IMG/VR virus record: IMGVR_UViG_2541047697_000006
DNA: 38,591 nucleotides
Direction: 5' to 3' (one strand)
Source: a virus
Lineage: Duplodnaviria > Heunggongvirae > Uroviricota > Caudoviricetes
This document shows positions 25,484 through 27,139 of the stretch, one piece after another; the first letter of the stretch is position 1; each line of letters begins with the position of its first letter. A model generated the notes under the pieces. It saw nothing but the letters and a program-made list of their open reading frames with translations, was not told the DNA's origin and did not search any database. The translations under genes and the position numbers were made by a program.

Positions 25484-25620
25484 AGGTGAGCCGTGTAATT
25501 GAAGGTTTTTACGTCAGATTCTTTTTGGATTGGCTTGCGTTTATTTCTGGAGCGTTTCGTTGGAAGGTATTTGCAGTTTTCGCAGATTATGTCGGTGATA
25601 CTTCGTCGCTGTCTCGCCAC
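25438..25620 (-). CDS. ninE: NinE-like protein
   Basis: [60 protein letters not shown] matches lambda NinE as recalled. Confidence 0.65.
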
Positions 25621-25756
25621 ACGTCCTCCTTTTCCTGCGGTAGTGGTAACACCCCTGTTGGTGTTCTTTCACACCGGAGACACCATCGATTCCAGTAAGG
25701 TTGATTTGGTCGGAAGCGGTTATCTTCTTTGCATTCACCGCACCGATAACATCGCA

Positions 25757-26629
25757 TCATGCAGCTTCCCTCCCGAAGTCGAAATAAAGCTGCCCTCCAA
25801 ATATTTCGCATGACTCAGAACAAGAGCCGGTATCGAATCTTTTAGCTCGTACCATGTCCTGATACAGGGCTTGATAATCATTTTCTGAATACATTTTCGC
25901 GATACCATCCAGCGACATTCTTCCTCGGTACATAATCTCCTTTGGTGTTTCCCGATGTCCGTCACGCACATGCGATCCCGTGATGACCTCATTAAAAACA
26001 CGCTGCAATCCCTCCTCATCTTTGCAGGCAAGTCCGATTTTTTGCGTTGATTTTTTAATGCAGAATATGCAGTTACCGAGATGTTCCGGTATTTGCAAAT
26101 CGAATGGTTGTTGCTTCCACCATGCGAGGATATCTTCCTTCTCAAAGTCTGACAGCTCAGCAAGATATCTGATTCCAGGCTTTGGCTTTAGCCGCTTCGG
26201 TTCATCAGCTCTGATGCCAATCCACGTGGTGTAATTCCCTCGCCCGAAATGGTCATCACAGTATTTGGTGAAGGGAACGAGTTTTAATCTGTCAGTGCAG
26301 AACGCGCCGCCGACGTATGGAGTGCCATATTTCTTTACCATATCGATAAATGGCTTCAGAACAGGCATTCGCGTCTGAATATCCTTTGGCTCCCATACCG
26401 TATAACCATTTGGCTGCCCAGGCTCTGGGTTGATATCAACCTGCAATACAGTGAGCGGTATATCCCAGAACTTCACAACTTCGCGGATAAACCGATATGT
26501 CATCGGGTGTTCACAACCTGTATCCATGAAAACGTAATGCACGTCTTCACCTGCCTGTCGCTTTTGCTCCATTAGCCAGAGCAAATATGCTGACGTCCTG
26601 CCACCGGAGAAACTAACGACATTTATCAT
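25757..26629 (-). CDS. PAPS-reductase-family PP-loop ATP pyrophosphatase-like protein
   Basis: Start at internal ATG 26629 ([20 protein letters not shown]...): SGG.TS PP-loop motif; ATG overlaps the ninB stop. Confidence 0.65.
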
Positions 26630-27066
26630 GCAGCCTTGTCTCCCCATCTTGCTTTCCACTCCAGAGCCAGTCGCGCTTCGTCTGACCACTTAACGCCACG
26701 TTCTGTACCGAATGCCTGTATAAGCTCTAATAGCTCCGCAAATTCGCCTACCCGCATCCTACTGGTTGACTGGCCTATTACCACAAAGCCAGTCCCGGCA
26801 AGGTTAGGAACAACGTCCTGCTGCTTTAAGGCTGCGGTAAACACACACTTCCAGCTTTCTGCATCCAGCCAGCGACCATGCCATTCAACCTGACGAGAGA
26901 CGTCACCAAGGCAAGCCCAAAGCTTTCGATTCTGGTCTAAGCTGCGGTTGCGTTCCTGAATGGTTACTACGATTGGTTTGGTTGGGTCTGGAAGGATTTG
27001 CTGTACTGCGTGAATAGCGTTTTGCTGATGTGCTGGAGATCGAATTTCAAAGGTTAGCTTTTTCAT
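26626..27066 (-). CDS. ninB: NinB (Orf-family recombination mediator)
   Basis: MKKLTFEIRSPAHQQNAIHAVQQILPDPTKPIVVTIQERNRSLDQNRKLWACLGDV... essentially lambda NinB as recalled. Confidence 0.9.
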   Translation of the reverse strand: MKKLTFEIRSPAHQQNAIHAVQQILPDPTKPIVVTIQERNRSLDQNRKLWACLGDVSRQVEWHGRWLDAESWKCVFTAALKQQDVVPNLAGTGFVVIGQSTSRMRVGEFAELLELIQAFGTERGVKWSDEARLALEWKARWGDKAA

Positions 27067-27083: not shown

Positions 27084-27113
27084 AATAAAAAGGCCTGCGA
27101 TTACCAGCAGGCC
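27084..27113 (-). terminator. tR2-like rho-independent terminator between helicase and ninB
   Basis: GGCCTGC-gattacca-GCAGGCC stem followed on the - strand by TTTTTATTTG. Confidence 0.55.
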
Positions 27114-27139
27114 TGTTATTAGCTCAGTGATGTAGATGG

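Follow-up and report, generated by a model that had tools for sequence, protein, structure and literature searches.

The locus and the question

What does a lone PP-loop protein do in the nin region of a lambdoid phage? The 38,591-nucleotide viral sequence analysed here in full (the window) encodes, beside replication and recombination genes, a 290-residue protein that an initial annotation had placed in the PAPS reductase / ATP pyrophosphatase superfamily. The protein proves to be NinC, which is among the last phage lambda genes without an assigned function. A literature search for a function of lambda ninC found none assigned, the gene is non-essential for growth on K-12 (PMC10695390), and the lambda interactome contains no protein interactions for its product (PMC3224144). 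Annotations nevertheless routinely make NinC a sulfur-metabolism enzyme, and virome studies count its gene among the auxiliary metabolic genes. The analysis below indicates that this "PAPS reductase" or auxiliary-metabolic-gene label is misleading and that the NinC family behaves as a DNA-directed counter-defence module, travelling with, and often fused to, anti-restriction methyltransferases.

The window gene is lambda ninC

The reading frame and its surroundings are as follows.

29334-28513, minus strand: O-like initiator gene
28516-27140, minus strand: DnaB-like helicase gene
27091-27114, minus strand: terminator-like hairpin (tR2-like) between the DnaB-like helicase gene and ninB; a consensus match only
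26626-27066, minus strand: ninB/orf, 146 aa (phrog_72, E 2e-58); its stop overlaps the ninC start (ATGA)
25757-26629, minus strand: ninC, open reading frame with translation, 290 aa plus stop
25587-25760, minus strand: ninD, 57 aa, CxxC...CxxC (Pfam NinD, E 1.8e-41); its start overlaps the ninC stop (ATGA)
25620-25438, minus strand: ninE, downstream of ninD
between ninE and RusA, minus strand: three small or HNH-like reading frames
24722-24360, minus strand: RusA gene
24363-24175, minus strand: further small reading frame between RusA and Q
24178-23660, minus strand: Q gene

The ninC reading frame lies on the minus strand, which had previously been left unstated, with its ATG start codon at 26629-26627 and its TGA stop codon at 25759-25757. 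By sequence comparison it is phage lambda ninC (nin290, lambdap64) on a lambdoid E. coli prophage: nucleotide identity to lambda nin290/ninC (J02459 41081-41953) is 98.1%, amino acid identity is 98-99%, the ninB-ninC-ninD-ninE order is conserved, and the nucleotide identity is equally 98.1% where other lambda-type phages carry the gene. Lambda NinC likewise has 290 residues and occupies the same site between ninB and ninD, while in place of the lambda replication genes O/P/ren the window carries the O-like initiator and DnaB-like helicase genes (an HK97/P22-type mosaic); the window as a whole is a mosaic lambdoid prophage (HK97/HK446/P22-like). E. coli strains A3 and A26 have prophages with a 100% identical ninC, and a match to ninC is present in 320 of the 5426 complete E. 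coli genomes. A first search returned 2563 protein homologues of NinC and a second 1654 cluster representatives at E<=1e-3; the relatives found in the viral-contig scan were all at least 79% identical, and the divergent ones were found by scanning genomes and by tblastn against phage records. Judged from the lambda identity, the homologues and the Pfam score given below, the reading frame is a genuine gene and no chance ORF.

The overlap of the ninC start with the ninB stop, which had been proposed from the reading frames, is read in the sequence as an ATGA junction (GCTGCATGATAAATG). The position between ninB and ninE given in the initial annotation holds on the ninB side, whereas on the ninE side ninD intervenes. 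Expression of ninC alongside the early replication and recombination genes, also claimed there, is borne out by the gene order, which makes ninC delayed-early within the rightward (pR) operon. The strong tR2-like hairpin (arms AGGCCTGC...GCAGGCCT, 8-bp stem, 6 G-C pairs, then TTTTATTT) has the same position in the window as lambda tR2. Because it lies between the helicase gene and ninB, expression of ninB-ninC would need antitermination, and ninC, being downstream of it, would not be immediate-early.

ninD follows ninC in all lambda-type loci and is translationally coupled to it there and in the window. No ninD was found next to the ninC relatives in the Stx-phage, Xenorhabdus, Vibrio and Chi contexts, and NinD was ruled out as an obligatory partner of NinC, since it is missing wherever ninC occupies a non-lambda-type context. 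The spacing of the NinD CxxC...CxxC cysteines makes a zinc ribbon likely.

Conserved motifs and predicted fold

NinC scores 36.5 bits with Pfam PAPS_reduct (PF01507) against a gathering threshold of 22.5 (E 6.6e-9) and matches PHROG 33262 (E 2.7e-93) and PHROG 424 (E 5.3e-89); with the generic PP-loop models of Pfam it is sub-threshold. The superfamily originally proposed is thus confirmed by a Pfam threshold passed and by an SGGxxS loop on a Rossmann-like alpha/beta fold. Conservation was mapped over 150 cluster representatives, which except for a few near-identical fragments among them are 27-54% identical to NinC, and the percentages in the following list refer to that set.

26591-26614, minus strand: PP-loop SFSGGRTS, residues 6-13 (S8 97%, G9 94%, G10 98%, T12 90%, S13 98%)
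26507-26524, minus strand: DTGCEH, residues 36-41 (T37 97%, G38 92%, E40 99%)
26282-26302, minus strand: FCTDRLK, residues 110-116 (C111 99%, K116 99%)
26192-26218, minus strand: acidic/arginine motif GIRADEPKR, residues 138-146 (G138 99%, R140 99%, D142 97%, E143 98%, R146 98%)
26051-26077, minus strand: CxxC motif GNCIFCIKK, residues 185-193 (G185, N186, C187 and C190 each 99%, K193 98%)
25805-25828, minus strand: CxxxC motif GSCSESCE in the flexible tail, residues 268-275 (C270 and C274 each 98%)

K100 and R235 are likewise 90-99% conserved among the 150 representatives, and C124 is poorly conserved (42%). The N-terminal SGG.TS PP-loop noted in the initial annotation is the SFSGGRTS loop, which is predicted to bind the ATP alpha/beta-phosphate. 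A loss of PP-loop catalytic residues in the alignment, the outcome named at the outset as telling against the assignment, was not seen, the loop residues being kept in 90-98% of the 150 representatives. DTGCEH aligns with the LDTG of APS/PAPS reductases, the second nucleotide-binding motif of the PAPS-reductase fold. The five invariant cysteines appear compatible with an iron-sulfur cluster: C111 and the CxxC pair (C187/C190) may act as metal or Fe-S ligands, while the C-terminal CxxxC could act as a sulfur carrier in the manner of the mobile Cys tail of PAPS/APS reductases. As a whole, the pattern is what would be expected of an active ATP-using enzyme whose cysteines ligate a metal or Fe-S centre and whose tail carries sulfur, by analogy with APS reductase, DndC and TtuA-type enzymes.

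The AlphaFold model of NinC, built with 150 divergent relatives, has a pLDDT of 92.4 and a pTM of 0.89, and pLDDT drops to 65/59/41 across residues 261-290, so that the chain after residue ~265 is a flexible tail. In fold searches the N-terminal ~160 residues match APS/PAPS reductases (best), LarE and tRNA thiolases with TM ~0.4, while the C-terminal 120-130 residues matched no solved structure, and a search of BFVD gave a full-length match to one viral family member only. Since the fold matches stop at the N-terminal domain, the C-terminal 120-130 residues are family-specific. HMMER alignments of NinC to APS/PAPS reductases end even earlier, at about residue 96.

A 294-aa variant present on 20 contigs (P0037) keeps the first ~230 NinC residues and has a DUF551 segment in place of the C-terminal part, including the CSESCE tail, and is perhaps an inactive product of recombination.

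Fusions to DNA methyltransferases

Among the 150 best clusters of the representative library (50% identity), six carry a fused N6-adenine DNA methyltransferase. A Dam domain (PF05869) is N-terminal to the NinC module in P0123 and P0125 and C-terminal to it in P0121, P0126 and P0157, and a D12-class enzyme (PF02086) is C-terminal to it in P0131. Both matched PHROG families are long enough for such extensions, NinC corresponding to positions 161-432 of 460 in one and 1-273 of 495 in the other, and NinC-Dam fusions were also found in Providencia among the species-representative genomes. Two prophages carry triple fusions: an uninterrupted 1099-aa reading frame of a Mixta tenebrionis prophage (L120:1893-5192) has the order C5-cytosine methyltransferase–NinC–D12, and an uninterrupted 1031-aa frame of a Sodalis sp. 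prophage (L121:1938-5033) the order C5-cytosine methyltransferase–NinC–Dam. All 24 key NinC residues are retained in every fusion. The involvement of three methyltransferase families and the occurrence of both domain orders imply several independent fusion events.

Methyltransferases also occur close by, a Dam or D12 gene being fused or within 3.5 kb in 15 of ~38 diverse gammaproteobacterial prophage loci with full flanks, a count uncalibrated against the frequency of dam in nin regions generally; in phage Oslo and some other lambda-type loci dam lies directly between ninB and ninC. Our argument for a DNA substrate is therefore built on the fusions and leaves adjacency aside. Multi-methyltransferase fusion proteins are a classic means by which phages and plasmids camouflage their DNA against several restriction systems at once, and a NinC module placed between two methyltransferases would most simply be one more DNA-protective activity.

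In the window itself NinC stands alone: its chain ends 15 residues past the CSESCE motif with no fused Dam, and a tblastn search of the window for Dam, D12 and C5 methyltransferase domains gave nothing (E > 0.1). The search for partner genes in relatives that the initial annotation had advised was run and revealed no fixed genomic partner of any kind across the contexts inspected. These contexts comprise the nin region, the early-left operon of Stx phages, the gap between terminase and portal genes, and a setting among nucleotide-metabolism genes. Stx-converting phages (L001 VT2phi_272, L040-L082) carry a ~80% identical ninC allele in the early-left operon downstream of recT/exo, and its position outside the nin region indicates that ninC is mobile as a single-gene module. 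In Vibrio phage K70 a NinC relative (L085:1451-2302) separates the large terminase gene from the portal gene. In phage Chi a nucleoside 2-deoxyribosyltransferase gene directly follows the relative (L087:2477-3376), and a ThyX-like gene is found ~1.8 kb upstream of the relative.

Sulfate reduction and 7-deazaguanine synthesis

The RefSeq and PHROGs product name "phosphoadenosine phosphosulfate reductase", together with top structural matches to APS/PAPS reductases, would suit a phage CysH, that is, an auxiliary metabolic gene boosting assimilatory sulfate reduction during infection. However, NinC scores 17.4 bits with NCBIfam PRK02090 against a cut-off of 154 and 13.4 with TIGR00434 against 165, identity to CysH structures is 19-20%, and only ~160 of the 290 residues superpose (TM 0.38-0.41). 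The C-terminal catalytic signature of CysH is ECG[LI]H, in place of which NinC has CSESCE, and NinC has a true SGGxxS PP-loop where the aligned 6vpu sequence has SSSFG. More generally, the assimilatory APS/PAPS reductases (2goy, 6vpu, 1sur) lack the intact PP-loop of NinC, differ in the C-terminal motif and have nothing that matches NinC residues ~150 to 265. Fusion to DNA methyltransferases, finally, would be metabolically senseless. The NCBIfam scores, the tail motif and the fusions rule out a CysH-type metabolic role, to which we assign a very small residual probability.

A QueC-like enzyme of 7-deazaguanine DNA modification, which had been suggested alongside DndC, fares no better. The Pfam score (11.7 against 22 bits) is below the cut-off, folE, queD, queE and dpdA are absent from the nin region, where all reading frames belong to nin, replication or Q families, and the fold is less similar than that of sulfur-handling enzymes. 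The suggestion is not supported, and we regard it as the least probable of the readings considered; both it and the CysH reading are effectively excluded.

A close homologue with an anti-Dnd phenotype

Residues 1-280 of NinC are 59% identical (E 2e-116) to p0018 of Vibrio phage 44E38.1 (P0070, 479 aa). The PP-loop, every cysteine motif and the CSESCE tail are shared by the two proteins, while p0018 is a PAPS-Dam fusion with a C-terminal Dam domain and the window NinC is stand-alone. The neighbourhood of p0018 is nin-like, consisting of an O-like initiator, p0019 (DUF6475), NinC-Dam, NinB/Orf and NinG. In Vibrio phage 44E38, p0019 (L083:2414-3004) occupies the position expected of a helicase loader.

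p0018 and p0019 alone separate the phages infecting a Vibrio crassostreae clade with Dnd and a retron, and their recombination into a sensitive phage allowed it to reach 1e11 PFU/ml on a retron-deleted, Dnd-carrying host (Piel et al., 10.1101/2021.05.05.442762). The phenotype was shown in V. crassostreae for p0018 plus p0019 jointly and for the Dam-fused form (10.1101/2021.05.05.442762), and later papers cite it as a phage PAPS reductase evading Dnd (PMC13551039, PMC10945359). Coral Vibrio phages with a PAPS-reductase gene infect Dnd+ and Dnd- strains alike (PMC10945359), so that presence of the gene is not diagnostic. Another anti-Dnd protein, JSS1_004, is a kinase/shut-off protein.

Because its closest studied relative helps a marine phage to escape a defence that marks DNA with sulfur, NinC is probably a counter-defence protein and not one of sulfur metabolism. 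The role in DNA modification or anti-restriction that the initial annotation had considered plausible thus gains support from the methyltransferase fusions and from the identity to p0018.

Relationship to the phosphorothioation enzymes

Among 5027 defence-protein models (PADLOC, whose models were used without curated cut-offs), the best match of NinC is SspD (E 1e-14); divergent NinC relatives match it down to E 3e-17 over ~200 of the 277 profile positions, and the alignments of two of them reach through the CxxC region. SspD, the ATP pyrophosphatase of SspABCD phosphorothioation, is of similar size (a 277-position profile against the 290 residues of NinC) and belongs to the same PP-loop/PAPS-reductase family, whereas only profile positions 3-122 align with NinC itself, in its N-terminal half, and none of sspA, sspB and sspC lies near ninC. 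The canonical PP-loop is SGGKDS, and its K-D pair is R-T in NinC. DndC (Dnd) and BrxP (type 4 BREX), which insert sulfur into the DNA backbone, are of NinC's domain family, but their matches are very weak (DndC E 0.012; BrxP E 1.3e-5 over ~50 residues), and both are far larger (~470-780 profile positions) and work with dedicated ATPases. The kinship to DndC raised initially therefore stands at the level of the domain family, while the match is weak and SspD is closer. The C-terminal half of NinC (residues 148-290), searched alone against PADLOC, gave no match.

No P-loop ATPase (DndD/SspC/BrxC type), nickase or cysteine desulfurase lies beside ninC in the window or in any relative's locus examined. 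A DNA-binding/nicking partner (DndE/SspB) is likewise absent from ninC loci, the neighbours being NinB, NinD, NinE, the DnaB-like helicase and others. The characterised phosphorothioation systems all require both a P-loop ATPase and a DNA-binding/nicking partner (PMC12914056, PMC12707154). With neither present, NinC would have to borrow host Dnd/Ssp components and IscS, be self-sufficient, or interfere with the host machinery.

A model for NinC action

Our proposal, to which we would give an even chance, is that NinC acts on DNA as a counter-defence enzyme akin to DndC, SspD and BrxP. In this model NinC would be a stand-alone PP-loop ATP pyrophosphatase with a cysteine-ligated, probably iron-sulfur, metal centre and a mobile CxxxC tail, expressed along with the replication and recombination genes of the delayed-early pR operon, and phage DNA would be its target. 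It would carry out ATP-dependent sulfur transfer, with sulfur drawn from a host cysteine desulfurase (IscS or DndA), and phosphorothioate-type marks would be placed on replicating phage DNA either by NinC alone or by way of host Dnd/Ssp components. DndFGH and related restriction modules, which sense phosphorothioate status, might then take the marked phage DNA for self. Phosphorothioate-type marking of phage DNA is the leading guess as to the chemistry, and a tentative one that may well be wrong. It is improbable, in turn, that NinC transfers sulfur to DNA as a single polypeptide and with no help but the general cysteine desulfurase of the host, which would make it an "orphan phosphorothioate writer" comparable to the orphan methyltransferases.

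Several observations count against the proposal. The SspD and DndC models cover the N-terminal half of NinC only and its C-terminal half is without a structural match, there is neither an ATPase, nickase or desulfurase companion nor, in the window, a methyltransferase of the fused families, and expression that is not immediate-early would be late for shielding incoming DNA. The PAPS module alone is not proven sufficient for the anti-Dnd effect, since two genes were moved and the form moved was Dam-fused. Few DNA standards are used as heavily as lambda DNA, and we know of no report of a phosphorothioate or other sulfur modification in it.

Interference, in which NinC intercepts the IscS/DndA persulfide relay of the host or binds DndD/E, SspB/C or DndFGH and so disables the defence while the phage DNA stays unmarked, would accommodate the homology to SspD, DndC and BrxP as well as the lack of partner genes in the phage, which means that host proteins must take part. 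The listing of "Anti-Dnd", the phenotype of the Vibrio homologue, with systems of unknown mechanism (PMC12881386) would fit as well. Yet a decoy needs neither an ATP loop nor five cysteines, and both are kept at 94-99% in clusters down to 27% identity; the repeated covalent fusion to active-looking DNA methyltransferases would go unexplained, and blocking host modification would still leave unmodified phage DNA open to DndFGH. We consider interference unlikely.

There is a similarly small chance that NinC modifies something else, adenylating an oxo or carboxyl group for replacement by sulfur or nitrogen on a DNA base or on tRNA, as TtuA, NcsA, TtcA and TilS do. In the base-modification version the fused methyltransferase domains would supply site recognition and base flipping. 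The tRNA version is opposed by profile searches of NinC, in which THUMP, PUA and TilS C-terminal-type domains were not detected, and by the methyltransferase fusions, which indicate DNA and not RNA. Against both versions, the one known phenotype of a close homologue concerns a phosphorothioate-based defence, and the top defence-model match is SspD.

Implications for lambda biology

The ninC gene itself and the anti-Dnd link of its close homologue were previously known, and our literature search found no paper that ties lambda NinC to Dnd by name. The present analysis explicitly identifies lambda NinC as an orthologue of the vibriophage anti-Dnd module, shows that the methyltransferase fusions, triple ones among them, are broad in range and independent of one another, maps the conserved residues, and demonstrates that the "PAPS reductase" or auxiliary-metabolic-gene label is wrong. 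With lambda genetics available and Dnd and Ssp systems cloned in E. coli, the mechanism of NinC is directly testable in the best-understood phage. The questions at stake are how a lone DndC/SspD-like protein acts against a phosphorothioate-based defence and whether phosphorothioation can proceed without a dedicated ATPase. If NinC were an orphan writer, the lambda DNA standard would carry an unnoticed low-level sulfur mark on backbone or base, and the C5-methyltransferase–NinC–Dam/D12 fusions would be three-in-one DNA-camouflage enzymes.

Lambda-type loci in unrelated assemblies

Lambda-type ninB-ninC-ninD-ninE loci with 98% identity to the window (L088, L090, L093-L095, L097 and others) were also found where the assembled organism is unrelated (Pseudomonas, Shewanella, Oceanobacillus, Neobacillus, Kitasatospora, Bradyrhizobium, Enterococcus and a Segatella MAG). 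The contigs that carry them have low coverage; some are ~48.4-48.5 kb and thus lambda-sized, and others are fragments. In these species-representative genomes they look like contamination with lambda control DNA. Similarly, the ninC of MW057783.1 (Campylobacter phage CJLB-4, 48,361 bp) has the same identity to the window as that of lambda and the record has a lambda-like annotation; it is probably a lambda sequence and not a Campylobacter phage.
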